This document shows positions 4,853-54,662 of a DNA stretch of 61,280 bases, one piece after another (within the stretch, counting starts at the first letter, position 1; each line of letters begins with the position of its first letter). Where the stretch lies: positions 100,050-161,329 of the forward strand of contig NW_015162578.1 of the NCBI RefSeq assembly GCF_001447785.1. The letters run 5' to 3'. The notes below the pieces were generated by a model. That model was given only the letters and a program-made list of their open reading frames with translations, had not been told where the DNA came from and made no database searches. This DNA is from Gekko japonicus (lineage: Eukaryota). A program made the translations under genes and the position numbers.

Positions 4853-5785
4853 TTATTTTGATTCTTTTATTGGGAATGACAACATTTTCCTAATCAGTTT
4901 TCTAACAGCATCTTTCATTTCTCTGTTTCTCAGAGTAAAGATCATTGGATTTAACATTGGAGTGATAAGGGTATAGCAAACAGAGGCTATTTTGTCACCT
5001 GGAAATACCCGGAAAGGACGGCCATATATGAACATTCCTGGAATAAAAATTAAGCTCGTAACGATGATTTGTGCAGCACATGTAGACAGGGCTTTGTGTT
5101 TCCCTTCTGTGATATGTGTTCTGATCTTTATCAAAATGACAGTGTATGATACTAGTAAGACACAGAAGATTAGTGTGAGAAGAAATCCACTGTTCGAAAC
5201 CATCAGTAGCTCTGTGATGTATGCATCTGTACAAGCCAGTTTGATGAGCTGTGGGACATCACAGAAGAAATTGTCCAATATATTGGGTCCACAGAAGGGC
5301 AGCTGAAGTATTAATGCTACCTGTATAATGGAGTGGGCAAAGCCACCCAACCAAGCACCTGCCACCAAACCAACACATACTCCTGGATGCATAATAAGCA
5401 AATATTGCAGTGGTCTGTAGATCGCTATGTATCTGTCAACAGCCATTCCTATTAGAAAAAAGGCCACAGCTCCTCCAGTAAAATGGAAGAAGAAAATTTG
5501 GGCAATGCACCACCTGTAGGAGATTGTATTTCTATGGGTGATGAGGTCCCACAGCATTTTGATTGCAGTCACTGTGGAGTCACTGATATCTATGACAGCC
5601 AGGTTGGCCAAAAGGAAGTACATGGGTGTGTGGAACTGAGGCATGAAAATCACGGTAATGATGATTGTCAGATTCCCCAGCCACGTTATGATGTAAATGG
5701 TGAGGAAAAGGAGGAAGAGGATGGTCTGCACCCTCGGATTCTGAGAGAAGCCCAAGAGAATAAATTCTGTTACTGTCGAATTCAT
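4853..5785 (-). CDS. Olfactory receptor, OR4D-like, paralogue A1 (310 aa)
   Basis: FHTPMYFLLANLA, MAVDRYIAIYRPLQY, LDNFFCDVPQLIKLAC, KALSTCAAQ, PMLNPMIFTLRN. The ORF-track start at 5791 is TTG; the true ATG is at 5785. Confidence 0.96.
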   Translation of the reverse strand: MNSTVTEFILLGFSQNPRVQTILFLLFLTIYIITWLGNLTIIITVIFMPQFHTPMYFLLANLAVIDISDSTVTAIKMLWDLITHRNTISYRWCIAQIFFFHFTGGAVAFFLIGMAVDRYIAIYRPLQYLLIMHPGVCVGLVAGAWLGGFAHSIIQVALILQLPFCGPNILDNFFCDVPQLIKLACTDAYITELLMVSNSGFLLTLIFCVLLVSYTVILIKIRTHITEGKHKALSTCAAQIIVTSLIFIPGMFIYGRPFRVFPGDKIASVCYTLITPMLNPMIFTLRNREMKDAVRKLIRKMLSFPIKESK

Positions 5786-7869
5786 TGCCAATGTGAAAAG
5801 TGAGGATTTAATTTCTGTGTATTACATGCCCAGATTTTACCCAGTTCATTATTTTAAGTGGTCTATCATTTTTTGTGTTCAGTCATATGAGAAAGTGAAC
5901 TTCTGTTCATTGGATCAGCTCAGCATGTTCTTAATTAATCTCAATCATAGTTTATCAATCAGTCGAGACACCAGGAGAGTTCACTGTATGTGTGGAGCCA
6001 AATGTTCAATGCTGAAACAAATGTAATCATAAAGCAAAATTAGGTGCTTCAAAAGCATAAATCACGCTACCGTCCTATATCTATAGTTAGGCTACCGTTC
6101 ACATTAACTTCAATGAGATCCAAAGCAATGTAGGCTGTAATTCGATGAACACTTTTTTCCTGAGAGTAAACCCCATGAAATAAAATTAGACTCTCTTATG
6201 ATTATTCATTGGATTACTTTCCGAATTGTATAGTATACAATTGCCTTCTCTAGTGAGAGGAAACAAAACATGTTATCACTGTAGTTATTGTGTTCATATA
6301 CAGCCAGTGGATAAAACCATTAGTCTATCCCCATCATGTACCCCAAGATGGCTTCTTTCTTACTGGTTTGGGAAATGCATTAATGAACCCACCTTGCTTT
6401 GCGTAAATGCAGAGCCCACCTTGCTTTGTATGAACATAATATATATACCCCACATTTTTTAAAAAAAAATGTATTTGTTTATTGAAGTTTAAAATAAAAT
6501 ACAATGAAGTGCTTAGTAAAGCATGAATGAAAAACAATTACAAAATTAATATTAAGCTGGTGGTGAATCGAGGATTGCCATTACAAGTTATCTGCCAATT
6601 TTGAGCTGATCAGTCATCATCATCATCAATTCTTTATTTGGCCTACGACCAGTACAAGTCAGTTATAAAAGCTTTACAATGTCATTAGAAAGTAAAATTG
6701 ATCCGATCTATTGGCAACAATTAGTTAAAATCTGTACATAAAATATCTCTAAGAATTCTACAGGCTACTGAAAAAAAATTGGCACAACTAATGGTAACCT
6801 GTTGATTAGCACCCATTAAAAATTTCTTTAAAATATATACATCTGAACATCCAGAAAAATTGATAAGCAGAGGGGAAATTATATTAGAATGAACTTCCTG
6901 ATAGAAGCGACAGTGGAATAACACATGCTCGACTGACTCCACCTGTTCAGTGCCACACAGACAAATACTTTCCTTCATGTGAATCTTTTTATATCTCCCC
7001 TCTAAAACTGCAGAGGGAAGGACTCGCCATCTCGCCAGAGTAAAAGCTCTCAGTTGACTGGGTACCTCCAGAACAGAGAGATAAGGTGCCGGGGCAACAA
7101 CATATTTAAGCTTCTCGGGTATCAGAGAGTTTGGAACATTGTTAATGTCTCTCGTCATTCTACATCAAGCAAGTTTTATTTGATCATTGATTTTGCTTGA
7201 TCAAAACCCATTTGCAGGAAAAATTCAGGAGAGAAACCCAAATTCTGCAGGTTGAATGGCCTTCTCCCAAGAGGATTGGAAATAGTCTTGCAGGACTAAC
7301 GTTATTAAACCCCATGGGTTATATGATAATTTTAACCAATAGTTAATGGAGGCAAGGCTTACCCTGGCCTCTACCTTAATCATGCCTGACTCGAGACGTA
7401 AGCTGGCATTGGACACACAGCTTGGCACCTGAAATAAAGCTCTCAGGAATCTTGATTGATTTTTTTCTAACGGGGCAAAGTGGGAGGAGGGGGGTCCAAG
7501 AGTTTCTCCATACATTAATTGGGACAATGTTTTTTGCCTGAAACAACCGGAGGGCTGCTTCCCTTAGAGCATGCAAATCTAAGAATGGCCTGTGCAGATT
7601 TTTGACCAGTTGCTGCAGCATACACAGGGTAGTTCTACTCCCTGTGGAGTGAATCATCACCCCTAAGTATTTGAAATAAGGTACTTGTTCCAGCTTATGG
7701 CCATTGATGTTCCAGGACCTTCTTTTCTGACCTTTGCCAAATACAACAATTTTAGTTTTGTTTTTTTACCATAAATTTTATTGAATTATTCATATAAACA
7801 CATGAAGAACAATTTTAGTTTTTTGATAGTTAATCAAAACTATAGCTAGAGACTCTTTGCAATAACAAC

Positions 7870-8255: not shown

Positions 8256-8794
8256 ATAACAACTGAATGCCTTAAGCATTCTTTTCAAGCCCACTGGGGT
8301 TCTGGACAGTACAACTGTATCATTGGCAAAAAGCAAAGCCAGGATTTTCCTATTGGCTAAAGCAGGGGGGTGGGTTTCAGTGGAGCTTATGCTACTGATC
8401 AGATTATTAATGTATAAATTGAACAGCACTGGTGCCAGGACACACCCATGTTTTACTCCTTTAGCTGTATTTACCAGGTTGGAAAGGTGCCCAGCCCTAT
8501 CACATCTAACTTTAAGTGATGTATTTGTATAGAGAGTTTGCATTAAATATAAAAGTCTAAGATCTATGTTCATAGCTTTCAATGTTTCCCACAACAAGCC
8601 CCTAGATATGGTATCGAAAGCAGATCTCAAGTCAAGGAAAGCAGCATATAACGAGGCAGACCTACTAGATGCGTATTTCTCTATTAGACATTGCATAGTT
8701 ATACATTGACCCAGTGTAGAACCCTCCCTGAAGCCTGCCTGTTCCAAAACAAGGATATCTAATTGTTCAATCCAGCATTTCAATTTGTCCAGTA

Positions 8795-10256
8795 ATAAAG
8801 CTCCCGGCGACCCAGCAACGCCGCTGGTCGTTGGGGGCTGATATGCCACCCTGAGGAAGGCAGGCAGCAACTGTAGCCACAATGCCTTGTGTCATGATGT
8901 GGGCGAGGGGGTGGAGCTGGCTTGGATAAACAGCCAGGCTATGCTCCTGCCCGTTGACATTTTTTCCAATGTGCTCACCCACCCTCCTGGCCTGTTCTTA
9001 GTGTAGCTTATGGCTAGTTGCCTATTGGGGCCAGGTAGGAATGTTTTGCTTTTACCCAGTAGTGGCTGAACGGGTGTAGGTGTTTTTGCCTACCTTGCAC
9101 TGAGAGCAGTGGATTGGATAATTGGTTGTGGTGGTTGACACCTAAATAGGCTGGTCATTTTATAGGTTGGTGCAGGCAAGATACCAGAACCAGTGAGCAC
9201 CTTACGGCATTTTCCCCGTTAGGGAACAAGGGGTCATCAGGAACTGCCTTCGGATTTCTAAGGTCCATGGTGGGGAATGGTGATCACCTCCTCTGGGAAC
9301 CATTGCATAGTTATACATTGACCCAGTGTAGAACCCTCCATGAAGCCTGCCTGTTCCAAAACAAGGATATCTTCTTGTTCAATCCAGCATTTCAGTTTGT
9401 CCAGTCACAAAGCTCCTCCCGGCGACCCGGCAATGCCGCTGGTGTTGGGGGCTGATTTGCCGCCCTGAGGAAGGCAGGCAGCAACTGTAGCCACAATGCC
9501 TTGCATCATGATGTGGACGAGGGGGTGGAGCTGGCTTGGATAAACAGCCAGGCTCTGCTCCCGCCCATTGACATTTGTTCCAATGTGCTCGCCCACCCTC
9601 CTGGCCTGTTCTTAGTGTAGGCTATGGCTAGTTGCCTATTGGGGCCAGTTAGGAATTTTTTTGCTTTTACCCAGTACTGGCTGAATGGGTGGAGGTGTTT
9701 TTGCCTACCTTGCACTGAGAGCAGTGGATTGGATAATTGGTTGTGGTGGTTGACACCTAAATAGCCTGGCCATTTGACAGGTTGGTGCGGGCAAGAAACC
9801 GGACTGAATGGGTGGAGGTGTTTTTGCCTACCTTGCACTGAGAGCAGTGGATTGGATAATTGGTTGTGGTGGTTGACACCTAAATAGCCTGGCCATTTGA
9901 CAGGTTGGTGCGGGCAAGAAACCGGAACCGGTGAGCACCTTATGGCATTTTCCCCATTAGGGAACAGGGAGTCATCAGGAACTGCCTTCGGATTTCTAAG
10001 GTCCAGGGTGGGGAACGGTGATCACCTCCTCTGGGAACCTCTTAGGGTATGCTCCTCTCTGCAAGTTGGAAGGCTTCAGGGGTAGGCACTCCTAAGTGGC
10101 GACCAGTTTGCTGGGCTGCCGGTCATGAGCCAGACCAATGGCTCAGGACCGGAGCTGGGTGGCAAGGAGGTTGGTCAGGGGAACGACACCAGCCTTGCCT
10201 GTTCTGTGCTCGCTTAGCTGGTCCCTTGCCACAATGTTATGTTAAATAGTTAATAA
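8795..10256 (+). mobile_element. Non-coding retroelement-like insert (possibly a DIRS/Ngaro 3' region), internally tandem-duplicated
   Basis: Interrupts the LINE RT; a ~610-bp unit is repeated (about 8690-9300 and 9301-10040) with a further ~120-bp repeat; family assignment is tentative. Confidence 0.5.
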
Positions 10257-12313
10257 CCCACCTGTTCCAAAACAAGGATATCTTCTTGTTCAATCCAGCA
10301 TTTCAGTTTGTCCAGTAAATGGCTAGTGTATAATTTGCCTATAATGCTGAGGAGACTTATAGGTCTGTAGTTAGCTGGGTCATCTCTCCTCCCTTTCTTG
10401 TAGAATGGTATAATGATTGCCTGCTTCCAGTCCTCTGGAATACGACCTGTTGAGTCAATGTATGAGAAAAGTGAGGCTAAAGGTGCTGCCCACCACTTGA
10501 TGTTGTTCATTAGGAAATCTGAGGGTATATTGTCAATACCAGGGGCTTTTCCTTTCTTTAATTGCTTTATAAGTGCTGTGACTTCTTTTGTTGATAAATC
10601 GGATAAATCTGATGTTATTTGTAAGTGCAGATCACACAAACTCACTGCAAAGATCTTTCGGAAGTAAGATTCTCAAACATCGGTCATGATTACTGAGTCC
10701 AAAGGAGAGAAGTCCTTGAAAGAGTGCTTAGAAGCCAATTTCCAAAAAAGTTTGGAGTTTTTATCTTGCTCCTGGGTCAATTTTCCCCATGTTTCCATTT
10801 TATCTGCTTTTCTCTTTTTAGCCACAGTTAATTTGTATGATTTCTTTCCATCTAAATAGGTTTGATAAAGAGCTCAGCTTTCTAAGTTGGATGTGGATTT
10901 GTAGACATGGAATGCAGAGATACAGATTCTTTTGGCATCTTGACAGTCCTTGTCAAACCATTTCCTAGAGGAACGTCCAGATTTCTTAATTTGTGATTCC
11001 GTGTTTTACAGTATTAGGGACTTTAATCTTTGAATGATGTTGTCATAGGGAATTAAGGGGTTCTCTCCCTCTGGGCAGTCAATGATGGCTGCTCTATTTG
11101 CCATACATTCCTCCTCAATTAAATATTTCAATATTTGATCTAATTGGGGTGTCCACTTGGCACGACAGCCTGTTTGTTCTGTTGGTATAATCTGTGTCTG
11201 GTATAATTTGGTATAATTTGAGCTTTAAGGTAACTCTTTTATGAACTGGCTTTTGTGAGCAGAGTAAGATCCAAGTCAGAGCAGAGACATCTGTAAGTTA
11301 TATCCCATAATCTCTGTAGTTTCCACCTAAATGAAAAGACCTCACAGGTTACGGTGCTTACCACCATAATGGCAAAAGAAAGAATGAGTTAATGCTAAGT
11401 ATCACCCTACCTCTGGAGTACTGTAATCTTATGCTTATGAATAATGTGAGCATCTGAGCATCTTCATTTCTATATCATTTGTTGTAGATAGGCCTTGTTC
11501 CCCCATTCCACCCATTTCCATCAATCGTATTCCCAAGTCAGTTGTTTCTTTTATGCCCTATGCACAGTTTCTGTGTCAGTCACCATTTATATGCTAAAAT
11601 AGAATTAATAAACATGTATATTTAATTGGGGGGGAAATCAGGAAAACAAAATGGAAAATGGTGCAGATCTTCAGATTCTCATGCTTTATCAGCACATGAC
11701 ATCTTTGGAGCAAACATCGGTCATGAGTAGAAATTCAAAATCACCCCTAATTTAGATTTAGCTCTTACTTTTTTCTTCCTCTATAAATCAATGCAAAAAA
11801 CAGTGGTCAAACTGTTTTGTGCCAGAGATAAGAATCATACTCACTTGTTCTNNNNNNNNNNNNNNNNNNNNNNNNNNNNNNNNNNNNNNNNNNNNNNNNN
11901 NNNNNNNNNNNNNNNNNNNNNNNNNNNNNNNNNNNNNNNNNNNNNNNNNNNNNNNNNNNNNNNNNNNNNNNNNNNNNNNNNNNNNNNNNNNNNNNNNNNN
12001 NNNNNNNNNNNNNNNNNNNNNNNNNNNNNNNNNNNNNNNNNNNNNNNNNNNNNNNNNNNNNNNNNNNNNNNNNNNNNNNNNNNNNNNNNNNNNNNNNNNN
12101 NNNNNNNNNNNNNNNNNNNNNNNNNNNNNNNNNNNNNNNNNNNNNNNNNNNNNNNNNNNNNNNNNNNNNNNNNNNNNNNNNNNNNNNNNNNNNNNNNNNN
12201 NNNNNNNNNNNNNNNNNNNNNNNNNNNNNNNNNNNNNNNNNNNNNNNNNNNNNNNNNNNNNNNNNNNNNNNNNNNNNNNNNNNNNNNNNNNNNNNNNNNN
12301 NNNNNNNNNNNNN

Positions 12314-17052: not shown

Positions 17053-17985
17053 TTATTTTGATTCTTTTATTGGTAATGAGATCATTTTTCTAATTAGTTT
17101 TCTAATAGTATCCTTAATTTCTCTGTTTCTCAGAGTAAAGATCATTGGATTTAACATTGGAGTGATAAGGGTATAGCAAACAGAGGCTATTTTGTCTCCT
17201 GGAAATACCCGGAAGGGACGGTCATAAATGAACATTCCTGGAACAAAATTTAAGCTTATAACAATGATTTGTGCACCACATGTGGACAGGGCTTTGTGCT
17301 TTCCTTCCGTGACATGAGTTCTGATCTTTATCAAAATGACAGTGTATGATACAAGTAAGACACAGAAGATTAGTGTGAGAAGAAATCCACTGTTTGAAAC
17401 CATCAGTAGCTCTGTGATGTATGTATCTGTACAAGCCAGTTTGATGAGCTGTGGAACATCACAGAAGAAATTGTCCAAAATATTGGATCCACAGAAGGGC
17501 AGCTGAAGTATTAATGCTACCTGTATAATGGAGTGGGCAAAGCCACCCAACCAAGCACCTGTCACCAAACCAACACACACTCCTGGATGCATAATAAGCA
17601 AATATTGCAGTGGTCTGTAGATCGCTATGTATCTGTCAACAGCCATAACTACTAGGAAAAAGACCACAGTTCCTCCAGTAAAATGGAAGAAGAATACCTG
17701 GGTAATACACCAGTTGTAGGAGATGGTATTTGTGTGAGAGCTGAGGTCCCACAGCATTTTGATTGCAGTCACTGTGGAGTCACTGATGTCTGTGACAGCC
17801 AGGTTGGCCAAAAGGAAGTACATGGGTGTGTGGAACTGAGGCATGAAAATCACGGTAATGATGATTGTCAGATTCCCCAGCCACGTTATGATGTAAATGG
17901 TGAGGAAAATGAAAAAGAGGATGGTCTGCACCCTCGGATTCTGAGAGAAGCCCAAGAGAATAAATTTTGTTACTGTCGAATTCAT
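17053..17985 (-). CDS. Olfactory receptor, OR4D-like, paralogue A2 (310 aa)
   Basis: Intact ORF highly similar to A1; ATG at 17985 (the track start is TTG). Confidence 0.96.
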   Translation of the reverse strand: MNSTVTKFILLGFSQNPRVQTILFFIFLTIYIITWLGNLTIIITVIFMPQFHTPMYFLLANLAVTDISDSTVTAIKMLWDLSSHTNTISYNWCITQVFFFHFTGGTVVFFLVVMAVDRYIAIYRPLQYLLIMHPGVCVGLVTGAWLGGFAHSIIQVALILQLPFCGSNILDNFFCDVPQLIKLACTDTYITELLMVSNSGFLLTLIFCVLLVSYTVILIKIRTHVTEGKHKALSTCGAQIIVISLNFVPGMFIYDRPFRVFPGDKIASVCYTLITPMLNPMIFTLRNREIKDTIRKLIRKMISLPIKESK

Positions 17986-20250
17986 TGCCAATGTGAAAAG
18001 TGAGGATTTAATTTCTGCGTATTACATACCCAGATGTTACTCAGTTCATTATTTCAAATGGTCTATAATTTTTGCATTCAGTTATATGAGAAAGTGAACT
18101 TCTATTCATTGGGTCAGCTGAGCACATTCTTAATGATTCTTAATGATAGTTTATCAATAAGTAGAGACAGCTGTGTATCTGGAGCCAGAAGTTCAATTCT
18201 GAAACAAATTTAATCAAAAAGCAAAATTAGGTGGTTCAAAAGCATAAATCATGCTGCCATCCTATATATAGTTAGGCTACGGTCACATTAACTTCAATGA
18301 GATCCAAAACAACGTAGGCTGCAATCCTAAGAATACTTCCTTCCAGAAAGTAAGCCTCATGAAATAAAATTAGACTTTCTTATTATTAGACCTGCTTTGG
18401 ATTACTCTCTGAATTTTATAGTATGCAATTACCATCTCTAGTGAGAGGAAATAAAACCTAACAGTAGCTATTGTGTTCATAGAAGGCATATGGATAACAC
18501 CATTAGTCTATCCCCATCATGTACCCCAATATGGCTTCTTTCTTACTGGTTTGGGAAATCCATTAATAAACAGATTACCCAGAGCCCATCTTGCTTTGTA
18601 TGAACATAATGTGACTACCACACAGTTAATAGCACCCTCCTCAAGTCATAAAACTTTCTAAGGGGGGGGAGTTACGGTGGGAGTGCAGTTATATCCCATA
18701 ATTTCTGTTGTTATATCCCATAATTTCTGTAGCTTTTAATTTCCACCTAAACTAAAAGACCTCACAGGTTCCTATGCTTACCAGCATAATGTCTAAAGAA
18801 TGAGTTAGTGCTAAGTATTATCCTACCTGTGGACTACTGCAGTCCTATGATTCTGAATGATGTGAGCATCTTCCCATCTTCATTTCTAGATGTTTCACTT
18901 GTTGGAGATAGAAGGTTCCCCCCCCCATTCTGCCCATTTGCATTGATCATGTTCCCAAGGTGATTCTTTCTCTTATGCCCTATGCAGAGTTTCTGTGAGA
19001 GTCACCATTTATATGCTAAAACCAGAACTGATTAACATGTAAATTTAATTGGGAAAAAATCAGGAAAACAAAAAAGAAAATGGTGCAGATTTGCAGATTC
19101 TCATGCGTTATCAGCACAGGAGAGAAGATAAAATAACATGGGGGCTTTGGAGCTGAAGCATCAGTGAGAAGAATTTCAAAATCATCCCTAGTGTAAATTT
19201 AGCTCTTGTTGATTTCAGTGAAACTTACTCTGAATTAAGTGTGCATAGAATTGTGTTCTTCAGTACTTCATTGAACAGACTAAGGTAGTTATGCTAAAAT
19301 CAAGCATAAATGTGATTCTGGTGAGCTCTTTCACTTGTTAAAACTCCAAATATTCTTCAACAGCCCAACAAACTGTATGTTTTATACTGCAATTCTAAAC
19401 AGAATATATCCCATTGAAGTCAGTGGGCTAATAAAGGTATAGCTTTGCTTAGTATGGCATTGTTAATCACCTCAGAAAATGTCACACCTCTCACACCACC
19501 ATAATTTTAATTATTTACCTATCTGTGAGCACATTCCAATCATTGGATAATGGATTGGAAAATAATTTTAAGAATATATTGGCATATTGTTTAAAGCAGA
19601 TGCCTTATTTGCCTTTTTAAAAAATGCATATGCTTTAAAATGCATATACATTCTCTGCCATGGAAGTGACTATCAACATGGTATACAATCATTACAAGAC
19701 TCTGTGGTGGATTCAACCAGCTTTTGCAGCTGGTGTTCCCTTTGACCACCATGACCCTCAAAAACTATACCGGAGATCATGTCATTGCATGGATAAAAGT
19801 CAATTTGGAAATGCATGGGAAGGGTCTGAGAGCCATTCTCTGGTCCCCATCCCTAGGTTCTCTTTTGAAAGTAGGATTCAAATAATGTCAGACTTTTAAT
19901 ACATTGATTATGACTATCACTGACCATAGGAAGGAGATGGGTCTCTTTTCTAGACTGATGGAGATTTTCTCTCCATTCTTACTTAAGCCATTTGTTCATA
20001 AGGCAGTTTGTTCATAAGGAATTTGATGGAGCTAGTAGGGCTGCTAAATGTCTGATATCCCATAAATTGCAACTTATGAGAAAGCTTCGGACTGATAGTT
20101 CGGTGAAAGATCTCCTGGCTGGTAAGCAAATTGTACAGGGGGGAAAAAACTGCTGCCAGAATGAGATCCTGGCAGATGCTAATCAAGGCTGCTTAGTGTG
20201 ATGAGACATCCAGATTCTGGTTGATTGTCTCCTCTTCTTTAAAAACTAGA

Positions 20251-29858: not shown

Positions 29859-31419
29859 TATGTTTAGTCTGGAGAGCAGACGACAGAGAGGTAATATGAT
29901 AACCATGTTCAAGTACTTTAAGGGTTGTCATATAGAGGATGGTACAGAGTTGATTTCTTTTGTCCCAGAAGATTGGATCAGAACCAACGTGTTGAAATTA
30001 AATAAGAAGACTTTTTGGCTAAACATTAGGAAGAACTTCCTAACAGTTCAAGTGGTTCCTCAGTGGAACAGGCTTCCTTGGGAGATGGTGGGCTCTCCTT
30101 CTCTGGAGGTCCTCAAACAGAGGCTAGATGGCCATCCAACAGCAATGCTGATTGTGTTAACTTAGACAGATCATGAGAGGGAGAGCAGGAAGGGTTGCCT
30201 CAGTGCTTAGTTCTTGTGGCCCTTTCTTACGCACCCAGGGAAATGCTGATCGCCACTTTTGGGTCAGGAAACCATTTTTCTCCAGGCCACTTGGACTGGA
30301 GATCCTGGAGGTTTTTTGTTATCTTCTGGGCACGGAACAGTAGTCACTGCAGGTGTGGAGGGGGAGGCATTTGTGAATTTCCTGCCTTGCACAGGGGGTT
30401 GGACTAGATGACCCTGGAGGTCCATTCCAGCTCTATGATTTTATGACACACAGCCACACACACAAACACACACAGATAGAACACTCCACTCAGTTATAAC
30501 CTATGAATCATTCTGTGCTATGACTTCTAAAAATATAGGTATGATTTTAATTATCTCTCTTGGGGTTTGATTCCCTGTTCACAAAATATCTGATATTGTT
30601 CTTCTGTATGATAAAATGAAATCATTGCAACAGACTGCTGGAATACAGCAATAACATAGGATGTAGGAGTTTTTCAGCATGGGGGTGGGAAACACAGAGC
30701 AGAGAGTAAGCTGGCTGGAAGTGAATTATGTATGCTATGTGATATCATTTTTGTGAGTGCTCAGAGTAGCTTTAGATACACTGATCAGTGTTGCAAGGAA
30801 CAGTGCCATTATATTAGGTATCACCACAGTTTGGTTACAAAATTAAATTCATTAGCTTCAGATCTCTGGGACTGTAAAAAAAAATCAGAAACAGAGTATT
30901 CTTTGATGTAAGGGAAACACATTGCTGGAAGAAAGAGGAGTCACTGAGCTGAAAATGAAGAACTGAAGCCCAGAATCTGACATTTCTTATTTGGTATGTT
31001 GACATTTATGAAAATGTATGATGTACGTGAAGCTCTGACAGTAGGTCCATCTATAGATGGATTTCAGCTTGTGGGAGGGCTGAAGGATTTTGCACTGTGC
31101 TTATTCTTGTGGTAGCATGAGCCATCTGTCTGGCCATTGTCAGAAACAGGACGTTGGACTAGATGGACTATTAATTATGTTCGTAAAACACATTCTTCAA
31201 CTTGAGGAACAAGATATATGTTCTAGATGCATGCCATCAGTTTGTATTGAACTGCATTCTCTCTGTTTTCTTCTCTTAATGATATCTATGTGAAAACTAT
31301 CACATTGCATCTTAATGAGGCAAAATCAGGGATGAAAACATGCTGGGAAGGGCAAATACAGAACATGATCAGGTACACGAAAGGACTTCTTACAACATAT
31401 CTGTGCCAAAAAAGAAAAT

Positions 31420-31929: not shown

Positions 31930-32465
31930 ACTTCTTTGGAGGTTTTCAGACAGAGGCTAGATAGCCATCTGACAGCAATGTTGGTTGTATGAATTTAGGC
32001 AGATCATGAGGGGAAGGGCAGGAAGGGTTGCCTCAGTGCTTGTGGCCCTTTCTTACACACCCAGGGAAATGCTGATCATCCTTCTAAGCTGTGGAGTTTT
32101 GTGAGCAAAAAAATTTCTTTGTGAGCAACTGGCATTAAAGTTGTAAGGGAGCAATTTGGCTACTGCATAAATTAGTTTGCTCTGGAGCCATCCTTCCTGA
32201 GCTAAGACAAAAATATGTCAGCTGGAAGCTTAAAAACTGTGAACTAGCTCACACTAACTCAGCTTAGATGGAACACTGGTCAGGAAGCAATTTTTCTCCA
32301 GATCAGTTTGGTCAGGGTTCCTGGACGTTTTTTGGTCATCTTCTCGGCATAGAACAGCGGTCATTGCAGGTATGGAGGGGGAAGTATTTCTGAATTTCCT
32401 GCATTGTGCAGAGGGTTGGACTAGATGACCCCAGAAGTCCCTTCCAACTCTATGATTCTATGATA
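31930..32465 (+). mobile_element. CR1 3' end with an inserted hAT-like MITE (~32080-32278)
   Basis: Same 3' UTR as 30160-30445; ttctatgattctatgat tail. Confidence 0.8.
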
Positions 32466-34273
32466 CTACTTTAACAAACTGCTGTTCTTGTACTGTGTTC
32501 TTGCACTATATTCTGTATATTTATGATACTAGTTTATGTCATATATTGTTGTTCTCATCTTGTTGCTTTATTGTTAACAGTTGAAAATTTAATAAAATAT
32601 ATTTGTAAAAAAACCTTGACAGAAATTTGAAGGAAGGCACAGACACAGGCTTGAAACAAAGGTCCACAACTTTGATTGAAGATCATAAACACACAGGCTG
32701 AGTTCTGACTGGCAGTTTGAAGGGGTAGGGAGTTGTGGCAAGAAAAACCCGGAACAAACTGTTCCGGGTTTTCCCATTCACACTGCAGCGACTGATGCAG
32801 GAGCATACTGGGAGAAGGCGCAAGGGAGCGTTCACACGGTTCGCCTGGAGGCACAACTGTAATTATTTTTATTATTTTATTATTATTTAGATTTTTATCC
32901 CGCCCTCCCTGTAGGGAGGTGTTTTCCTCACTCCACGGCAGACGGCTATGCGCATTAGCGCTTATGCGCATCCCTGGGGCAACCGCCAGCACACATTATG
33001 AACACGGGTTGCCAGATTGACGTTCACAGTTCCAGGAAGCAGGATATACATGGGATAGACACGCTTTCCAGGGTTTGCTACCACTTTCACCTGGTATCTT
33101 TTAAACCCGGGAGCAAAGTGTTACAAGACGGGTTGAGTATGGGTGGGGAACGCCGGACAGATGTGCCTGTGTGAATGGCCCATTTAATCCAGTTGTGAAA
33201 CATTCCTCACACGGGCCTTTATCGGGGCAAACTGCCCATCTGAACTTGGCCACAATTAGGCCATAAGAAGTTAGGGTGTTACGAAGTCAGCTAACCTAAA
33301 TGAAATTGTGCAAAAACAAAGCCTAATGAGGACAGTAATTGTTCCAGTTCATATCCTCATGGTCCATAATGATATGATAGAATACCATCACTAAGAAACA
33401 TGGGATGGGCCTTGTGATCTTCAGGTACGGGGTACGTACTATATATTTCTTTGTAAATTACTGAGATTATCTTTTGTTGGACTGCTCTTGAAAGCAACCT
33501 GGAAACAGCAGCTCCTCCAGAGTGCAGCAGTTCTATTATCATCTGGGGCTAGCAAAGAACATCCTTTGCCTATTCTAAAAAAATTCTGCCTTTTGCGATC
33601 CACACACCTAAAGGATTGCCCCATATGGCCCTGTGCACCAGCTGTGGTCCTCAGGTTCTCACTTGCTAGCTTTCTTCCTACTTATGGTAGCCTGGTCAGC
33701 ATTAACTATAGCAGATGACTCTTGTATTGTAGTTCACTCAGTGGAATGGGCTTCCTGAGGAGGTGATGGGAGCTCCATCTCTAGAAATGCTTAGACAGCA
33801 CTGCAAGGCTATTCTGTCTGCCAGGGTTTTTATTAGTATCTTCTGGGATTTTGGGGGGTTTATTTTATGGCATATGCTATTTAATTTGTGAAGTGAAAGC
33901 TACCTTAAGGAGAGAGGAAAGGCAAGACATAAATATATATATATATATATAAAAAAAGAATACATACATACATACTTTGCAAAATCATAGAAGCAATTTA
34001 CAAATGGCCTCAAAAAAAAACTCAGGTGCTAGGTGTGAAAATAAAAGGAAAGCATCATGATTAGCCCTAACACACAATGATAGTAGGTGACACTCAAATT
34101 ATCAGTAAGGTGATGATTCCAAGAATTTTGCTACATATCATTCCTGGCCAGTGAAACTGGAACTCAGAACAATGTTCCCAAAGATATATGGATATATATG
34201 ATACATTACATACCTTATGTAATGGGTTTTTTTAATTCTGCCTTTTGCAGGTACACTATCGTGACGGTTTTGA

Positions 34274-35269
34274 ATGGCTCAGGACAACCAGACCTCAGGA
34301 GTGACAGAATTTATTCTGTTGGGCCTCAGCCAGAATTCCAAAGTGAATTTGTTCCTCTTTCTACTTTTTCTCATTATCTATATAACAACATGGATTGGGA
34401 ACCTCACCATTATCCTCACGGTGATCTTCATGCAACAGCTTCACACACCTATGTACTTTCTACTGGCCAACCTGGCTGGCACAGATATTGTTGATTCCAC
34501 AGTGACTGTTCTCAAAATGCTTGGAGGTCTCCTATCCCAACCCAATACCATCTCCTTTAACTGGTGTATTGCTCAGATTTTCTTTTTCCACTGCATTAGT
34601 GCTGCTGTAGATTTTTTCTTAGTGTTGCTGGCTGTTGATCGCTACATAGCTATCTATAAACCTCTGCAGTACTTGCTCATCATGAAACGAGAAGTTTGTA
34701 TAGGATTTGTAGCAGCTGCATGGATGAGTGGCTTTATTCACTCCATTGTGCAGATTGGGATTCTCGTTCAGCTGCCTTTCTGTGGACCCAACACGCTGGA
34801 CCATTTCTTCTGTGACATCTCCCAGTTTGTCAGACTGTCGTGTACTGACACATACATGACTGAGATACTGATGGTTACTAACAGTGGGCTACTCCTTGTG
34901 GTCATCTTTTTTGCCCTCCTTGTGTCATACTCTGTGATCTTGATCAAGATTAGGACACATGTGATGGAAGGGAGGCACAAAGCCCTTTCTACTTGTGCCG
35001 CTCAGCTCATGGTCGTAAGCATACATTTTGGACCTGCAATGTTCACTTATAATCAGCTTTTCAAAGTATTTCCGACTGAGAAGTTTGTTGCGCTAATGTA
35101 TACTCTCATCACACCAATGTTGAACCCATTAATTTATACTCTGAGAAATGCAGAAATGAAAAATGCTATTAGGAAACTCAAAAGAAAAATTTTGTCTTCA
35201 AGAAGAAATAGTTGTCCTTGCGGCCCAGATTTCAGTTCAGAGTACTTAAAATGTAGAAGATGCATTTAG
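34274..35269 (+). CDS. Olfactory receptor, OR4D-like, paralogue B1 (331 aa)
   Basis: LHTPMYFLLANLA, LAVDRYIAIYKPLQY, KALSTCAAQ, PMLNPLIYTLRN; splice acceptor ttttgCAG ending at 34250. Confidence 0.96.
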   Translation: MAQDNQTSGVTEFILLGLSQNSKVNLFLFLLFLIIYITTWIGNLTIILTVIFMQQLHTPMYFLLANLAGTDIVDSTVTVLKMLGGLLSQPNTISFNWCIAQIFFFHCISAAVDFFLVLLAVDRYIAIYKPLQYLLIMKREVCIGFVAAAWMSGFIHSIVQIGILVQLPFCGPNTLDHFFCDISQFVRLSCTDTYMTEILMVTNSGLLLVVIFFALLVSYSVILIKIRTHVMEGRHKALSTCAAQLMVVSIHFGPAMFTYNQLFKVFPTEKFVALMYTLITPMLNPLIYTLRNAEMKNAIRKLKRKILSSRRNSCPCGPDFSSEYLKCRRCI

Positions 35270-41005: not shown

Positions 41006-41928
41006 CAGAGAGATAAGATAATACCTAGTGTTAGATCACTTTTTCTATAGCACCTAAGGTGGTAAGTATAGGAACCTGTGATGCAGATGGAAATTAAATG
41101 CTACAAAAATGTGGGATATAATGTATAGATTATTCTACTATAACTTGGACCCTTTGGTCCTGCTCTGCTCACAGGAGCCAATTTTATTCACAAAATAGGG
41201 GGAGGATTTTCCGATTCTGCATTCCCACTGCAAAGCCCCCTCACCTTAGAAAGGTGTACAAACTTAGGAGAGTACTGTTTGTTGTGTGGGGTATAAATTA
41301 TATCCACACAAAGCAAGATGAGCTCTCAGTAGTCTGTTGATTAGTGGATTTCCCAAACCAGTAAGAAAGAATTCATATTGGGGTACATGACAAGCATAGA
41401 ATAATGGTTTTATTCACTGGCTCTATATGAACAAAATAACTACAGCTTAGTTAGGTTTTGTTTCCTTCAGACTAGAAATGGCAGTTGTAATACTATGCAA
41501 TTTGGAGAGCAATCCTAAACTGGACTAGTTATAAGTTTAATTTTATTTCATGGGGCTTACTCCCAGGAAAGAAGTGTTCTTAGGATTGCAGCCTACATCG
41601 CTCTCGATCCCATTCAAGGTAATGTGACTGGTAACCTAACGATATACAGGACAGCAGCATGAGATATGCTTTTGATTCACCTAATTTTGCTTTACGATTA
41701 AATTTGTTTCAGCATAGAACTTCTGGCTCCAGACATGCTGAACTCTCCTGGTATGTCTACTTATGACAAACTATAATTAAGAACGTGCTCAGCAGACCCA
41801 ATGAATAGAAGTTCACTTCTGCACATAAAAGAATACAGAAATTATGGACAACCTAAAATAATGAATTTAGTAAAATCTAGGTATGTAATATACAGAAGTT
41901 AATTATATATATAAGGGGGGAAACGGCA

Positions 41929-42861
41929 ATGAATACAACAGTAACAGAATTTATTCTCTTGGGCTTGTCTCAGAATCCAAGGGTGCAGACCATTCTCTTC
42001 CTCATTTTTCTTGCCATTTACATTACGACCTGGCTGGGGAATCTGACAATCATTCTTGTTGTAATTTTCATGCCTCATTTCCACACACCCATGTACTTCT
42101 TTTTGGCCAACCTGGCTGTCATAGACATCAGTGACTCCACAGTGACTTCAATCAAAATGCTGTGGGATCTCAGCTCCCACACAAATACCATCTCCTACAA
42201 CTGGTGTATTGCCCAGGTATTCTTCTTCCATTTTACTGGAGGAACTGTGGTCTTTTTCCTAGTAGTTATGGTTGTTGACAGATACATAGCGATCTACAGA
42301 CCACTGCAATATTTGCTTATTATGCATCCAGGAGTTTCTGTTGGTTTGGTGACAGGCGCTTGGTTGGGTGGCTTTGCCCACTCCATTGTACAGGTAGCAT
42401 TTATACTTCAGCTGCCCTTCTGTGGACCCAATGTATTGGACAATTTCTACTGTGATGTCCCACAGCTCATCAAACTGGCTTGTACAGATATATACGTCAC
42501 AGAGCTACTGATGGTTTCAAACAGTGGGTTTCTTCTCACACTAATCTTCTGTGTCTTACTTGTATCATACACTGTAATTCTGATAAAGATCAGAACACAT
42601 GTCACAGAAGGGAAACATAAAGCCCTGTCTACATGTGCTGCACAAATCATAGTTATGAGCTTAATTTTTATTCCAGGAATGTTCATATATGACCGTCCTT
42701 TCCAGGTATTTCCAGGAGATAAAATAGTTTCCGTGTGCTATACTTTTATCACTCCAATGTTGAATCCAATGATCTTTACTCTGAGAAACAGAGAAATGAA
42801 GGATACTATTAGAAAACTAGTTAGAAAAATGATGTCATTTGTAATAAAAGAATCAAAATAA
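41929..42861 (+). CDS. Olfactory receptor, OR4D-like, paralogue A3 (310 aa)
   Basis: Intact ORF; inverted paralogue of A1/A2 including flanks. Confidence 0.96.
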   Translation: MNTTVTEFILLGLSQNPRVQTILFLIFLAIYITTWLGNLTIILVVIFMPHFHTPMYFFLANLAVIDISDSTVTSIKMLWDLSSHTNTISYNWCIAQVFFFHFTGGTVVFFLVVMVVDRYIAIYRPLQYLLIMHPGVSVGLVTGAWLGGFAHSIVQVAFILQLPFCGPNVLDNFYCDVPQLIKLACTDIYVTELLMVSNSGFLLTLIFCVLLVSYTVILIKIRTHVTEGKHKALSTCAAQIIVMSLIFIPGMFIYDRPFQVFPGDKIVSVCYTFITPMLNPMIFTLRNREMKDTIRKLVRKMMSFVIKESK

Positions 42862-43720: not shown

Positions 43721-46700
43721 AACAATGCAGCATTGTCCCCATTTTTTCCCCACTCTTGATAAACCAACTGGTGGGGAAGGGCTTCTGGTGGGAGTTCTCC
43801 TGGAATAAGCAGGCAACTGGGAACCCAACTCCAGAAGAACCGATAACTATAGTCTGGAGACCAGTAGTGATTCTGTGAAAACTCCAGGTTGGCAACCATA
43901 GTAGTAAGCAAGGGACCAGGAAGGGAGGTGTCTAGCACTGGCCTAGACATAAGAAGCCAGACTGGAAAGCCTCCCCCATCATAAAATGACTCAGGATAAT
44001 CATCAGACATTTGTAGCTTAAGCAAAAGAACACACCAACCTCAGTAGGCCCTAGCCGGTTTATTACAGGTTTATTTACTTAACTTTGGCAAAGTGAAGCA
44101 GGGAAAGAAGAAACCTTTCATGGCCAATCTTAAAGAGTCCAAAAATCTTACTTGGACCTGAAACAACCAGCTAATCCCACATTGCCAAATACAAATGGTG
44201 AGTGCTATTCTCAAGAAGGTGCAAACTTATAAAGTTTGCTTACTGCGTCCCCTTGAAGGGATGAGGATCCCAGTCTCCTCAAATAGCCACCCAAAAGCTC
44301 AACTTTTGTCTTTGCTGGAAAAAGGAGAGGGCAAAGAGAGTTTCTGAGCATGATGGAAGGGTGCGGAACTTCTTTCGACAATTCTCAAGCACTAATATCA
44401 CAGTCTGTATTGAACTGTCAATCACCGGTGTGGCACATGAGCATTCAGCTTTTGCACAATCATTCAGCAACAGCCTCCAAAGGGAAACACAGCAAGGTCA
44501 GTCAGTCACTATAGCCAAGAAATCATTGAACAAGAATGGCCAACTGATCTCTGATAAAGCACCTCCTGACTCAGTCTTACTCAAGCTAGTGCACATGATC
44601 TCAACTAAAGAAGAAGAAGAACCAATATGGCCCCATTCACATGGAGAAGTTGCCACGCTGAAGACACAGATGATAGGCAGATTTTCCAGGTGCGATCACA
44701 CCACAACATTTGGGAAGCGTAGTGCACCCGTGGCATGTTGCCGAAGATGCGGAGTAAAAAACCACCACATAGGATGTACTAGTTTCCAAAAAACGCGGGG
44801 CAAGGGTGGGCGTCTGATCGCGTTTCTGCTGAAAACCCTTGGCATCCAGCACCCGCCCATGTCCCCTTGCAAACCAAATGTTTTTTTAAAGTCCCCACAG
44901 GATGCACACAAACGATCATGCACATGCACAAACTTCGGTGAGACAAAAAAAAAACCCATTTGCCACAGAAGTGGCACGGCGCGATTGCCAGTGTGAACGC
45001 ACCGTGCTCCTTCTTTGCCGCGCTCCTTCTTTGCCGCGCTGCAGACTAGCTGTCTGATTGGCATCTAACACCTAACCACGGGACCTCGACAGGAGGTCTG
45101 ATTGGGCTGCCGCATGTTACTTTGTTTCGGGGCAAACAGCCACGCTTCCCCCCACACACATTTTCCGGCCCGTGTGACTGGGGCCTATATGAACTTTACA
45201 AAAACAAACTTGCATCTGCTTCTACTCAAAGGGAATATACAGAATATGCACTTTTACCCAGGGGCTGACTACCTTATCGCAAAAGTTGCACACCTGAGCT
45301 TGGACTTTGTCATTTCAAACTTGGATTGGAGATACATGTGACTGTGCATTTATATATGGTATTTGCGTAAATATGCCCAATCCCCTACATTGAGAAATCT
45401 GGATTTTAGGGACTGCATTTCAGTCTTTCCTATTATTCTAGGTTCAAAAAGAATCTTTCCCGATGAGCCTATCATTGCAAATTGAAATCAGGAAAATCTG
45501 ACCTAATGGCACATCTTCCTTCACCAATGCAAATTTTCAAAATCAAATCTCTTTTTTAAAACAAATATATCATTCCCCAAACATCTGGACTTCTTGGGGA
45601 CTAGTATTTTGATCATATTAACCATGTGATCTTCAGACATCTTGTAATTAGTCTTGTTTTATAATAGTAGGTAATATTTGGAATTAAACACGATTAGGTT
45701 CCCCCAGAATGAGCTGCTTATATCTGTCTAAAAAGAACTGAAATAAATTGTTCCTATTACTCTAATAGTGACCTTTAAGGCCCTAAATGGTCCTGGACCA
45801 ACATAACTTCAGGACTGCCTCTCCTTTTATACCCTCTCCCCTGGTGATCCTTAGCCAGAAAAAAAAATATATCTGGCTGTCCTGAATGTGTACTGAATGT
45901 TGTACAATGACATGAGTCCCAAATAATAGGTAAGGGTGGTCTAGAAATTGAATCAATCAGGCATAATGTTACTTTGCATGTTAAAATGGAAAAGAATGTA
46001 AAATGCTATTGTTCCGGAAGGCATGTTTCTAAAGGGAACAGGGCTCTAGTTTATTACGTTATTTATTGTCTGTATGTTCTTCCTCATTGCTTTCTAATTT
46101 CCGTAATTCTGTTTTTGTCTTGTTTATAATATGTCTTGTTGCATCCAATTTTACATTGCATTTTTTTTAAAAAAAACTTTTAGAAATCTTCCTTGTGTCT
46201 CAAAGAGAAAGGCAGACTACCAAGAATGTAAATAATTAATGAAAATTAATATCATTTTCCCGAGTCTTCCATGAAAAAAAATCACATTCATATTTTGCTT
46301 GTCTCAACATCTTCCATATAACTTGAAAAATAAAACAAAGTTCCAAGAAGTTGTTTTGTGTTAACTTATTTATTTATTTCAGTTTGTATCCCGCTCACCT
46401 CCTTAGGGCTCTGAGTGGCTTACATGTTTCAATTAACACAAATCCTAGCCTAGGGGCACATACATATAGGGAAAGTGACAAGCCTACCAGGCACCCCTTT
46501 TGTAGTGGATTTTCGTTGTTGTCTTTCTTGCAGGAGATAGTCTGGCGGCATCCTTTCTGGCGCTGGTCTTTGAAGTTACGCCTTCTGTTCCCACCTTCCG
46601 GCTGTTGCGATTCCTTTTCCGGGCCTGGGCCACTCGCACTTATGTACATGCTCGCTGTGGCCTCTGTCCAGACTAGGCTCCGGCCTGCTGCGACGCTCTG

Positions 46701-50670: not shown

Positions 50671-50767
50671 TCACTTTAGATATTAGGAGGTATGATGGAA
50701 TCTCATATTTATTACCTCACGTCACTGTTGTTTTCTGCTTGTTGCAGGTGTATTGTGAAGGTTCAAG

Positions 50768-51751
50768 ATGGCTCAGGAAAACCTGACCATAAAAGTCACA
50801 GAATTTGTTCTCATAGGTCTTTCGCAGAATCCAAAATGGAATTTCATCCTCTTCCTGATTTTCATCACTATCTACATCACAACCTGGCTTGGAAACCTCA
50901 CCATTATCTTCACAGTGATCTTCATGCGTCAGCTCCACACACCTATGTACTTTCTACTGGCCAATCTGGCTGCTTTAGACATCAGTGATTCCACAGTCAC
51001 TGCTCTTAAGCTGCTAGCAGGCTTCCTATCACACCCCAATACTATTTCTTACAACTGGTGCATTGCTCAGATTTTCTTTTTCCACTTTACTGGTGCTTCT
51101 GTGGATTTCTTGCTCACAGTAATGGCTGTGGATCGGTACATAGCTATCTACAAACCACTGCAGTACTTAACTATCATGAACCAAGGGGTTTGTATAAGCT
51201 TGGTAGCAGGTGCTTGGCTGGGTGGCTTTGTTCACTCCATTGTCCAGATTGGGATCCTCCTTCAGTTGCCCTTTTGTGGACCCAACACGTTGGACAATTT
51301 CTACTGTGACATTCCCCAAGTTGTCAAACTGGCTTGTACAGACACATACATCACCGAGTTGCTGATGGTTTCTAATAGTGGATTGATTGTTGCAGCTATG
51401 TTCTTTGTCTTACTTGTATCATACTCTGTCATTTTAGTGAAGATCAGAACCCATGTCACAGAGGGAAAGCACAAAGCTCTTTCGACTTGTACTGCACATA
51501 TTGTGGTACTGAGCTTAAATTTTGGGCCTGCAATATTCATTTATGACCGGCCTTTCAAGGTATACCCAGGAGATAAGATATTTCAAGTAATGTATACTCT
51601 CATCACCCCAATGCTGAACCCAATGATCTTTACACTGAGAAATACAGAGATGAAAAATGCCATGAAGAAACTCAAAAGGAAAATTGTGTCTTCAAGAAGC
51701 AGAATCTTTACTAGGAAAAAATCCTTTGATCTAGGTTGCACTGAAAAATGA
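50768..51751 (+). CDS. Olfactory receptor, OR4D-like, paralogue B2 (327 aa)
   Basis: MAVDRYIAIYKPLQY, KALSTCTAH, PMLNPMIFTLRN; acceptor gttgCAG ending at 50747. Confidence 0.97.
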   Translation: MAQENLTIKVTEFVLIGLSQNPKWNFILFLIFITIYITTWLGNLTIIFTVIFMRQLHTPMYFLLANLAALDISDSTVTALKLLAGFLSHPNTISYNWCIAQIFFFHFTGASVDFLLTVMAVDRYIAIYKPLQYLTIMNQGVCISLVAGAWLGGFVHSIVQIGILLQLPFCGPNTLDNFYCDIPQVVKLACTDTYITELLMVSNSGLIVAAMFFVLLVSYSVILVKIRTHVTEGKHKALSTCTAHIVVLSLNFGPAIFIYDRPFKVYPGDKIFQVMYTLITPMLNPMIFTLRNTEMKNAMKKLKRKIVSSRSRIFTRKKSFDLGCTEK

Positions 51752-52605
51752 ATATGGGGAGAAATAGATAGTGGTTATAAATTTTTAATATGCAGGAGAT
51801 GCCTTCAGTCAGTTAATTGTTAGCTCCACATATGCTGTGAACTCCTTAGAGAGCTCTACAGGTATAGTAAAGATAACAAGAAAAATTAGGCTAAAATATA
51901 CATTGATAAAATACCTAACTGTGCAAAGCCAACTTAGAGTTACACCTCAAATGGCACAAATCTCCTTAGGTTTGTGCCATTCATCATTTTAACTATCTGT
52001 TTTGTTTCAAAAAAATTGTTAGACTTGTGTAATGTATTTAAATTCTGTTCTTTGTTTCCCATGTTTAGGGGGGGTTGGTTTTATCATTTTAAAATGTGAT
52101 TATATCATGTATGTTTTAAATTGTTAGCCCCCTTAGTGGTCCTTGACAATGATAGATGATAATAAATAATGAGACAAAGGCTTTGAATTCTTTGATGTTT
52201 TATAGGAAATCATGCTTTAATCCATACTGGGGTGTGTGTGAAGAAAAACTGAATGTATTACCATTTTTGTTTGTTTTCCAACAGCAGAGCCAAAAAGGCA
52301 ACTAGAGGCATTTTAGTGGGGAAACAGGGCTGAACTGCAATCTCAGTTGCTGTTGTACATTTTGGAAATAAGAGGTTCCTTCTATTCCACTAGTTTCCTG
52401 TTCATTGTGAATCAATAATATGAACAAATCTTCCAGTTAAATCTCCAGCTGAGACAAAATTAGCATTTGCCCTATTATGACTTCTGAGATACGGACTATA
52501 CTTTAATATTCCCTTATGAGAGTTCATTCCCCATTCATAAGAAAACAAAAGAAAAAAGAAGCAGTACTATTCTTCAAAATCTGATAAAGTCTCACAGCGG
52601 CTTCA

Positions 52606-52897
52606 CTTAGGCAAATCATGAGAGGGAGGGCAGGAAGGGTTGCATCAGTGCTTAGTTCTTGTGGCCCTTTCTTACATGCCCAGGGAAATGCTGATCACCA
52701 CTTTGGGGTCAGGAAGCAATTTTTCTCCAGACCAGTTTGGCTGGAGATCCTGGAGGTTTTTTGTCATCATCTGGGTATGGAACAGTGGTCACTGGGTGTG
52801 TGGGGGGGAGGTATTTGTGAATTTCCTGTATTGTGCAGGGGGTTGGACTAGATGACCCTGGAGGTCCCTTCCAACTCTATATTTCTATGATACTATG
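52606..52897 (+). mobile_element. CR1 3' UTR fragment
   Basis: Same sequence as 30160-30445. Confidence 0.85.
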
Positions 52898-53212: not shown

Positions 53213-54662
53213 GTGGGCACATAGATGAACAAAACCTATTGAGGCAGACTCAGCACAGTTTCTGTAAGGGAAGATCTTGTCTCACTAACCTGTTAGTGTT
53301 CTTTGAGGGGGTGAACAAACATGTGGGCAAGGGGGATCCAATAGATATTGTTTACCTTGACTTCCAGAAAGCTTTTGATAGAGTTCCTCATCAAAGGAAG
53401 CTCAAAAAGCTCAAAAAGCTCAAAAAGCTCAAAAATCATGGGATAGAAGCACGTCCTTTTATGAATCAAAAACTGGCTAATTCATAGAAAACAGAGAGTG
53501 AGTATAAATGGGCAATTTTCTCAGTGGAGGGTGGTAAGCAGTGGGGTACCGCAGGGATCAGTACTTGGTCCACTTCTTTTTAACTTGTTCATTAATGATT
53601 TGGAGATGGGAGTAAGCAGTGAAGTGGCTAAATTTGCGGATGATACGAAGTTGTTCAGGGTGGTGAAAACCAGTGAGGATTGTGAGGCACTCCAAAGGGA
53701 TCTGTCAAGGATGGGCGAGTGGGCGTCAACATGGCAAATGGGGTTCAATGTGGCCAAGTGCAAGGTGATGCACATTGGAGCCAAAAATCCTAAATATAAA
53801 TACACATTGATGGGGTCTGAACTGGCAGAGACTGGTCAAGAGAGAGATCTTGGAGTTGTAGTAGATAACTCACTGAAAATGTCGAGACAGTGTGTGACTG
53901 CAATAAAGAAGGCCAATGCTATGCTGGGGATTATTAGGAAGGGTATTGAAAACAGATCAGCCAATATCATAATGCCCCTATATAAATCAATGGTGAGACC
54001 TCATTTGGAATACTGTGTGCAGTTCTGGGCACCACACCTTAAAAAGGATATTATAGCTTTGGAAAAAGTGCAGAAAAGGGCAACTCGAATGATAAAAGGG
54101 TTGGAACACTTTCCCTATGAGGAAAGGTTAAAGCGCTTAGGGCTCTTTAGCTTGGAGAAAAGACGACTGAGGGGTGACATGATCGAGGTTTATAAGATTA
54201 TGCATGGGAAAGAGCAGGTAGAGAAAGAGGTACTTTTCTCCCTTTCTCACAATACAAGAACTCGTGGGCACTCCATGAAACTGCAAAGCGGTTGGGTTAG
54301 AACGGATAAAAGGAAGTACTTCTTCACCCAAAGAGTGATTAACACTTGGAATTCACTGCCACAGGAAGTGGTGGCGGCTACAAGAATGGACGGCTTCAAA
54401 AGGGAGTTAGATAAGCATATGGAGCAGAGGTCCATCACAGAGGTCCAGCCACAAGGTATAGATAGGGGCTCTGGGACAAGTGATGCTCTGTCTTCTTGGT
54501 GCTTGGGGGGGTCAACAGTGGGAGGGCTTCTAATGTCCTGGCCCCACTGGTGGACCTCCTGATGGCACTGATATTTCTGGCCACTTTGTGACACAGAGTG
54601 TTGGACTGGATGGGCCTTTGGCCTGATCCAACATTGGCATCTCTTATGTTCTTATGTTCTTA
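53213..54662 (+). mobile_element. Relatively young 5'-truncated CR1 LINE
   Basis: Open RT C-terminal frame 53498-54562 (SGVPQGSVLGP, FADD); (TTCTTATG)n tail. Confidence 0.93.

Follow-up and report, generated by a model that had tools for sequence, protein, structure and literature searches.

Can one structured RNA module be common to unrelated classes of retroelement? The question is raised by a 61,280-nt stretch of the 2.49-Gb Gekko japonicus genome, hereafter the window, which holds an olfactory-receptor gene cluster. The original prediction placed an ENE-like U-rich internal loop in the 3' UTRs of three CR1 LINE copies and in a '9-kb insert', and suggested a role in RNA stability or in recruitment of the reverse transcriptase (RT). 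Judged by comparison of many copies, the module is a real, conserved and covarying RNA domain common to retroelement classes. At about 120 nt it is larger than first described, and the second class is a Ngaro-type tyrosine-recombinase (YR) retrotransposon. Three further hosts beyond CR1 and the Ngaro-type element widen the range originally proposed.

Copies of the domain in the window

The U-loop stretches of the three CR1 copies were found where predicted (Table 1), as were the insert counterparts at 9027 and 9641. A union pattern matched exactly five places in the window, all of them these known copies (mean in shuffled sequence, 0.02). A covariance model trained on 29 rows from outside the window, relatives of the window copies included, scored the five copies at 35–83 bits and added a sixth, decayed copy; the next match reached 10.5 bits. 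Applied to the window and to fetched loci, the model matches several families. Taken one at a time, the window copies show weak folding (z −0.15 to −1.99), so the case for the fold rests on comparison.

Table 1. Positions in the window of the RNA domain and its host elements; scores are those of the covariance model.
Feature	Position	Strand	Remarks
Whole domain, CR1 copy 1	30220..30338; U-loop arm 30265-30328	+	56.8 bits
CR1 copy 1, extent	about 29860-30446	+	ends in CR1 hairpin and microsatellite
U-loop arm, CR1 copy 2 (31931-32466)	32281..32345	+	35.3 bits
Whole domain, CR1 copy 3 (52602-52893, 5'-truncated)	52665..52783; U-loop arm 52710-52773	+	82.6 bits
Solo A+B unit, Ngaro-type YR retrotransposon	9407..10256	+	internal 123-nt duplication
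Domain in repeat A of Ngaro-type unit	9602..9723	+	77.9 bits
Partial second copy of Ngaro-type unit	8794..9301	+	within 93%-identical local duplication
Domain in duplicated partial Ngaro-type unit	8988..9108	+	77.0 bits
Sixth, decayed domain copy, older repeat family	44083..44198	-	26.5 bits
CR1 of another family, 3' UTR without module	53290..54657	+	RVT_1

The five copies had been counted as separate instances. The two in the insert lie in one local duplication (614 nt, 93% identical, taking in host LINE sequence), so the five represent two independent families. Nor do the three CR1 copies have different stems, as was claimed: they share one stem sequence, are 82–88% identical and belong to one subfamily. 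The stems do differ between element classes and still pair, covarying while the U-tracts stay. The motif reported upstream of the U-loop is intact in CR1 copies 1 and 3; in copy 2 it is replaced by a foreign repeat of about 200 nt (about 32080-32279), which also destroyed the side hairpin.

The gene cluster itself is represented by seven single-exon frames of about 320 aa (634-1572, 4853-5821, 17053-18021, 34274-35269, 41881-42861, 50759-51751 and 60189-61187). Both frames tested are olfactory receptors, and three of the seven are recent duplicates, about 91% identical, one of them inverted.

Structure and covariation

The predicted fold consists of an outer helix (P1), a side hairpin, a 6-bp lower stem, an internal loop in which AA-U4/5 faces U4-Y-G, a variable upper stem and a UUGG apical loop. 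Unconstrained RNAalifold leaves both U-tracts open between two helices and returns the side hairpin with a bulged G, a lower stem of 6–7 bp and the upper stem; with 28 Ngaro rows the outer helix is added, and 12 of 32 pairs are changed on both sides. In alignment A1 (43 rows) 96.6% of cells are paired and nine of 15 pairs show two-sided change, a level reached by none of 500 shuffles (slid controls, 49–73%). Alignment A4, which covers all hosts in 29 rows, is 94.7% paired, and its number of two-sided pairs is reached by 44 of 500 shuffles; the covariation counts on both alignments ignore relatedness of the rows, and in most rows the search patterns had dictated the lower stem and the U-tracts. 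Position 3 of the lower stem shows three Watson-Crick types in A4 (U-A 13, A-U 8, C-G 3) and position 1 two (G-C 20, A-U 7). The G-C pairs below the loop are present in 28 and 26 of the 29 rows and are altered in the CR1 subfamily of the window. Between Ngaro, CR1 and the older family of the sixth copy, P1 differs entirely in sequence and yet pairs in each.

The bias towards U-tracts was removed with a pattern fixing the lower stem only, which gave 448 matches against none in the control. In the 30 loci fetched from these matches, which overlap partly with the earlier set, the AA is invariant, AA and the 5' U4 are kept together in 28 and the 3' U4 in all 30, followed by U (20) or C (10). The upper arms vary, and in 26 of the 30 the native partner gives the better fold. 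The U-tracts are thus conserved, as predicted, and form the most conserved columns. The apical loop and an upstream GCC, considered as pseudoknot partners, are both nearly invariant.

Strand preference in folding differs between hosts. The sense strand gives the better fold for Ngaro copies (z −2.5 vs −1.1), there is no bias for old CR1 copies (−0.97 vs −0.95), and the antisense strand is the better one for the four bird-like copies (−0.9 vs −2.5). In the Ngaro upper stems, 57 of 270 cells are G-U and 4 are A-C, a bias that owes something to one shared pair and to the choice of register.

It is very improbable that the module acts as DNA, whether as a promoter element through its loop ATTGG (a CCAAT box on the other strand) or as a single-stranded fold for YR integration. 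The loop motif is nearly invariant, and in repeat A of Ngaro a GC box and TATA-like site closely precede the module (by about 105 nt), as one might expect of such an element; the compensatory changes in four helices and the excess of G-U over A-C speak against it, as does the presence of the module in a LINE 3' UTR, which has no YR step.

A binding element for a host protein, serving nuclear export, translation or evasion of silencing, is a more serious alternative, though we consider it unlikely. Retroviral CTE and RTE elements are the model for it, and the binding surface would be the junction, the AA/U-U loop and the UUGG loop. The conserved branched unit is much larger than a minimal ENE, the apical TTGG is kept in 29 of the 30 lower-stem-only loci, and a predicted place at the 5' end in Ngaro and the 3' end in CR1 would fit an element that works regardless of position. 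Facing tracts of four to five U between G-C-rich helices are, on the other hand, the hallmark of an ENE, and no part of the module is better conserved.

CR1 elements

The CR1 form present in the window has 2647 exact-pattern matches in the genome, and a CR1 form with a perfect lower stem has 222 (reversed controls, 0 for both); pairwise identity is 87.8% and 81.6%, respectively. Being about ten times commoner by exact match and more homogeneous, the window subfamily is probably the younger. In the old register, two mismatches are fixed in its lower stem. The original prediction took this imperfection for decay of the copies; with 2647 exact matches it is instead fixed in the subfamily and arose in an active master element, so that the original caveat about the stem carries more weight than was first given to it. 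The sequences point to a remodelled lower stem, possibly re-paired in a shifted register (GCAA with UUGC/UUGU). The 5' strand of the lower stem reads GGTAGG in Ngaro, GGAAGG in old CR1, GGAAGC in the window CR1 and AGCAGG in the older family.

These changes bring up the possibility, which we regard as improbable, that a fold functional in ancestral elements, and in Ngaro to this day, is a decaying passenger in the window subfamily. Fixed in many copies are not only the lower-stem changes but also a competing CTGGAG close by; in window copies 1 and 3 it is this CTGGAG that enters the minimum-energy fold. Another CR1 family manages without the module. Against a mere passenger, the U-tracts, upper stem, side hairpin and P1 have all been retained in the subfamily, and the mapped-read rows listed show no U-tract difference of 30% or more, bar one letter private to the reference.

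Same-strand ORF2 matches lie upstream of the module in 12 of 20 loci of the window subfamily and in just 5 of 30 of the older, perfect-stem subfamily, which was assigned by its common UTR and terminal motif (the motif being present in 14 of the 30). The module precedes the CR1 terminal hairpin motif by 54–84 nt. The window copies have the terminal hairpin and the microsatellite, the latter as had been noted; this end of the genomic copies would be compatible with poly(A) on the RNA. A presumably amphibian CR1 consensus keeps the 3' arm of the module. It comes from the supplement of PMC4316615, whose consensus alignment is trimmed over the module region and so is unusable for counts. In the window, the CR1 of another family (53290-54657) gave no covariance-model match in its 3' UTR; its ORF2 contains a short tandem repeat with an 11-nt unit (53390-53435).

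The Ngaro-type element

The '9-kb insert', at about 8.8–10.26 kb, is a solo A+B unit of a Ngaro-type YR retrotransposon. A first look at the genome gave 643 candidates of this family. Most of the 30 loci fetched, two of which are the window itself, are units of about 750–800 nt with sharp ends, while six have an extra copy of the 3' part (B) upstream of A+B. In at least three of these B-A-B loci (L037, L051, L057) a broken SGNH-like frame lies at the end of the upstream DNA. Upstream of a locus of a related family (L116) we found matches to Phage_integrase (E 8e-5) and Lipase_GDSL_2 (E 2e-7), neither of them reaching its curated cut-off. Ngaro elements such as Xenopus DIRS-53_XT are described in the available text of PMC9210276 as having YR and SGNH frames followed by split direct repeats of the form B1-A2-B2, with repeat A expected at both ends of the element. 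The sequences of the insert family match this description, and the family is known here from loci short of a full-length element.

The Ngaro form of the module has 310 exact-pattern matches in the genome (reversed control, 0), and in 97 of the 100 listed, as counted by eye, T...A takes the place of the A...T of CR1. Thirty loci taken from this pattern fall into nine flank clusters, five of which are singletons. An AATAAA follows the module by about 390–440 nt in 20 of the 30, and the unit in the window stops at the family's AATAAA in B. The original term '3' module' fits CR1, where the module is near the 3' end, and is too narrow for Ngaro, where repeat A is expected at both ends.

In the window (8689-10318) the Ngaro-type unit lies inside minus-strand LINE-like sequence, and a 58-nt host stretch recurs on both sides. 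Solo A+B units far outnumber copies with upstream ORFs (L031-L060, L111-L140), as if repeats had recombined with one another, or A+B circles or transcripts had spread on their own.

A packaging or reverse-transcription signal, recognised by the element's own RT or Gag-like protein at both ends of the Ngaro RNA, seems to us distinctly improbable. The expected double occurrence of repeat A would suit it, and the module is kept in all nine flank clusters. The RTs of CR1 and YR elements are unrelated, and this, with the module-free CR1 family in the window, also makes the originally suggested RT recruitment unlikely. Moreover, non-coding loci in which no RT frame was seen carry the module. For the CR1 RT, the available part of PMC4316615 names the terminal hairpin and microsatellite as the presumed recognition site.

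Further hosts

The older family to which the sixth copy belongs has 28 matches in the genome, and 12 of 14 fetched loci match the model at E ≤0.05. Its other copies have the lower stem AGCAGG/CCTGCT and a different outer helix.

A metagenome scan with the module pattern gave ten matches. Four are host DNA, which we take to be bird-like from a neighbouring CR1 fragment; the other six look bacterial, show no pairing, score at most 17.6 bits and were rejected. Viral contigs gave 0 pattern matches. The bird-like contigs have a different upper stem, with decayed tandem copies downstream. They represent a multicopy element (L102, L103, L105, L110) in which about 700 nt upstream is common to the copies and the domain is followed by up to three decayed tandem copies; a frame upstream of the module matched no Pfam family above cut-off.

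A 781-nt bird-like query aligned to the gecko genome over the domain only (about 125 nt), and its best gecko matches revealed a further host: multicopy, repeat-rich non-coding loci, with an AATAAA 81–101 nt downstream of the module in all five examined. Neither an RT frame nor a recognisable coding frame was seen next to the module in these loci. Some stand behind kilobase arrays of tandem repeats of about 156 nt (L141-L150; G000 C249, C599, C16775, C7371), and the multicopy loci L141-L150 are possibly a lncRNA family. A candidate family with a change at lower-stem position 4 was rejected (10 matches vs 4 in the control). At one place in the genome (L079/L080, G000 C1703:338078-338417) two identical module copies stand in inverted orientation, about 220 nt apart. 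The covariance model covered the window and sets of fetched sequences, and further hosts may exist.

RNA reads

RNA reads came from unstranded libraries, with three raw runs and one contig run per locus set. They derive mostly from copies embedded in other transcripts; most run on into unrelated flanks, and the reads define no start or end sites. Reads continue past the Ngaro AATAAA. At one locus (L050:1665-2094) they join the end of the SGNH frame to B and pass the AATAAA to the end of B; coverage is missing before about 1472, which may reflect divergence rather than a start. Some ORF-bearing Ngaro copies are thus transcribed or read through. The loose read ends listed at CR1 or Ngaro 3' ends gave no poly(A) consensus in these unstranded libraries.

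A possible poly(A) clamp

The reading we prefer, to which we give an even chance, is that the module acts as a single-domain ENE that clamps poly(A). The roughly 120-nt sequence is predicted to fold in cells as a multi-helix RNA whose U-rich internal loop would bind the transcript's own poly(A) tail in four to five U-A-U base triples. A-minor contacts in an ENE need G-C pairs, and the two G-C pairs under the loop would be suited to make them. With its tail bound, the RNA would probably undergo slower deadenylation and nuclear decay, in the manner of a single-domain ENE. The clamp may be weakened in the window CR1 subfamily by the remodelled lower stem. The unpaired bases are also common to the hosts (the AA, the bulged G of the hairpin and the UUGG loop), which argues for one origin followed by exchange between element classes; a host-facing role would explain why unrelated elements have the domain in common.

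Several observations tell against an ENE. The Ngaro module is far from the AATAAA and also stands in a 5' position, and no bridging helix is supported: pairing over this distance between the Ngaro leader and the poly(A) signal proved not to be specific (own −22.2, cross −21.9 kcal/mol) and was rejected. The most abundant CR1 form has a remodelled stem, and another CR1 family lacks the module. Folding shows no strand bias in old CR1 and favours the antisense strand in the bird-like copies. The side hairpin and the conserved UUGG loop are left unexplained.

A bolder proposal, which we consider doubtful, would account for these two features as well. The module would be an ancient vertebrate 3'-end RNA domain, swapped among LINEs, YR retrotransposons and host non-coding loci of lizards and birds. 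In addition to the clamping of poly(A), a host factor would be recruited by its side hairpin and UUGG loop, or these would provide a pocket for the end of the tail. It would constitute a new class of ENE and explain the protection of CR1 RNAs, whose DNA copies retain no poly(A).

If the clamp works, poly(A) clamping by an ENE-like domain extends to major vertebrate retrotransposons (CR1 LINEs and Ngaro), and a regulatory RNA domain would have been exchanged between unrelated element classes. What the 3' ends of CR1 RNAs look like also becomes a testable question. For direct tests, nature offers variants in the form of three lower-stem types, dozens of upper stems and one remodelled subfamily.

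Comparison with known systems

The available parts of PMC7583470 and PMC13541005 describe ENEs as U-rich internal loops with a helix on either side; most are found near 3' ends, and some occur in both LTRs. Transposon ENEs have been reported in plants, fungi, slime mould and stickleback retroviruses (PMC7583470, as available), and an ENE was shown to aid the mobility of a plant retrotransposon, Arabidopsis Evade/Copia93 (available part of PMC12501189). The word 'vertebrate' does not occur in the available part of PMC13541005, and that of PMC5753468 has nothing on the module. No report of the domain in CR1 or Ngaro emerged from our literature search; outside its scope lie Tycowski 2016 and Zhang 2017 with supplements, which could list the element. 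Rfam gave nothing at gathering score in the window, and chance-level matches only (E up to 10) on two module regions.

The gecko family resembles Xenopus DIRS-53_XT in its B1-A2-B2 repeats after YR and SGNH frames. It differs in that most gecko copies are solo A+B units, and the available text of PMC9210276 mentions no RNA domain in repeat A.

Like MALAT1, MEN-beta and MALAT1-like vertebrate loci, the module is a vertebrate U-rich internal loop, and its repeat-rich non-coding loci would resemble lncRNA genes in layout. A MALAT1-type triple helix goes with a genomic A-rich tract and, immediately downstream, a tRNA-like element; the module does not show this combination but is followed by an AATAAA, and its U-tracts are shorter. 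Rfam found no match to MALAT1/mascRNA and no tRNA-like element in the window; tRNA-Ala-like matches lie only far from the module.

The double-domain ENE of rice TWIFB1 likewise comes from a transposon RNA and has a U-rich loop with conserved adenosines nearby. However, alignments A2–A4 show a single U-rich loop rather than two separated by a short duplex, and the bird-like loci instead carry tandem decayed copies of the whole domain.

The single-domain ENEs of KSHV PAN RNA and Evade/Copia93 lack the extra AA and the Y-G at the base of the loop, and the module sits on a junction with a side hairpin, a long outer helix and a conserved UUGG apical loop. Its hosts, vertebrate LINE and YR retrotransposons, are absent from the available parts of the ENE reviews. 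Points of likeness are the four to five U on each side, a loop between two helices, occurrence in intronless parasitic RNAs, proximity to the 3' end in CR1 and in the non-coding loci, and an expected copy in both terminal repeats that parallels the ENEs inside 5' and 3' LTRs.
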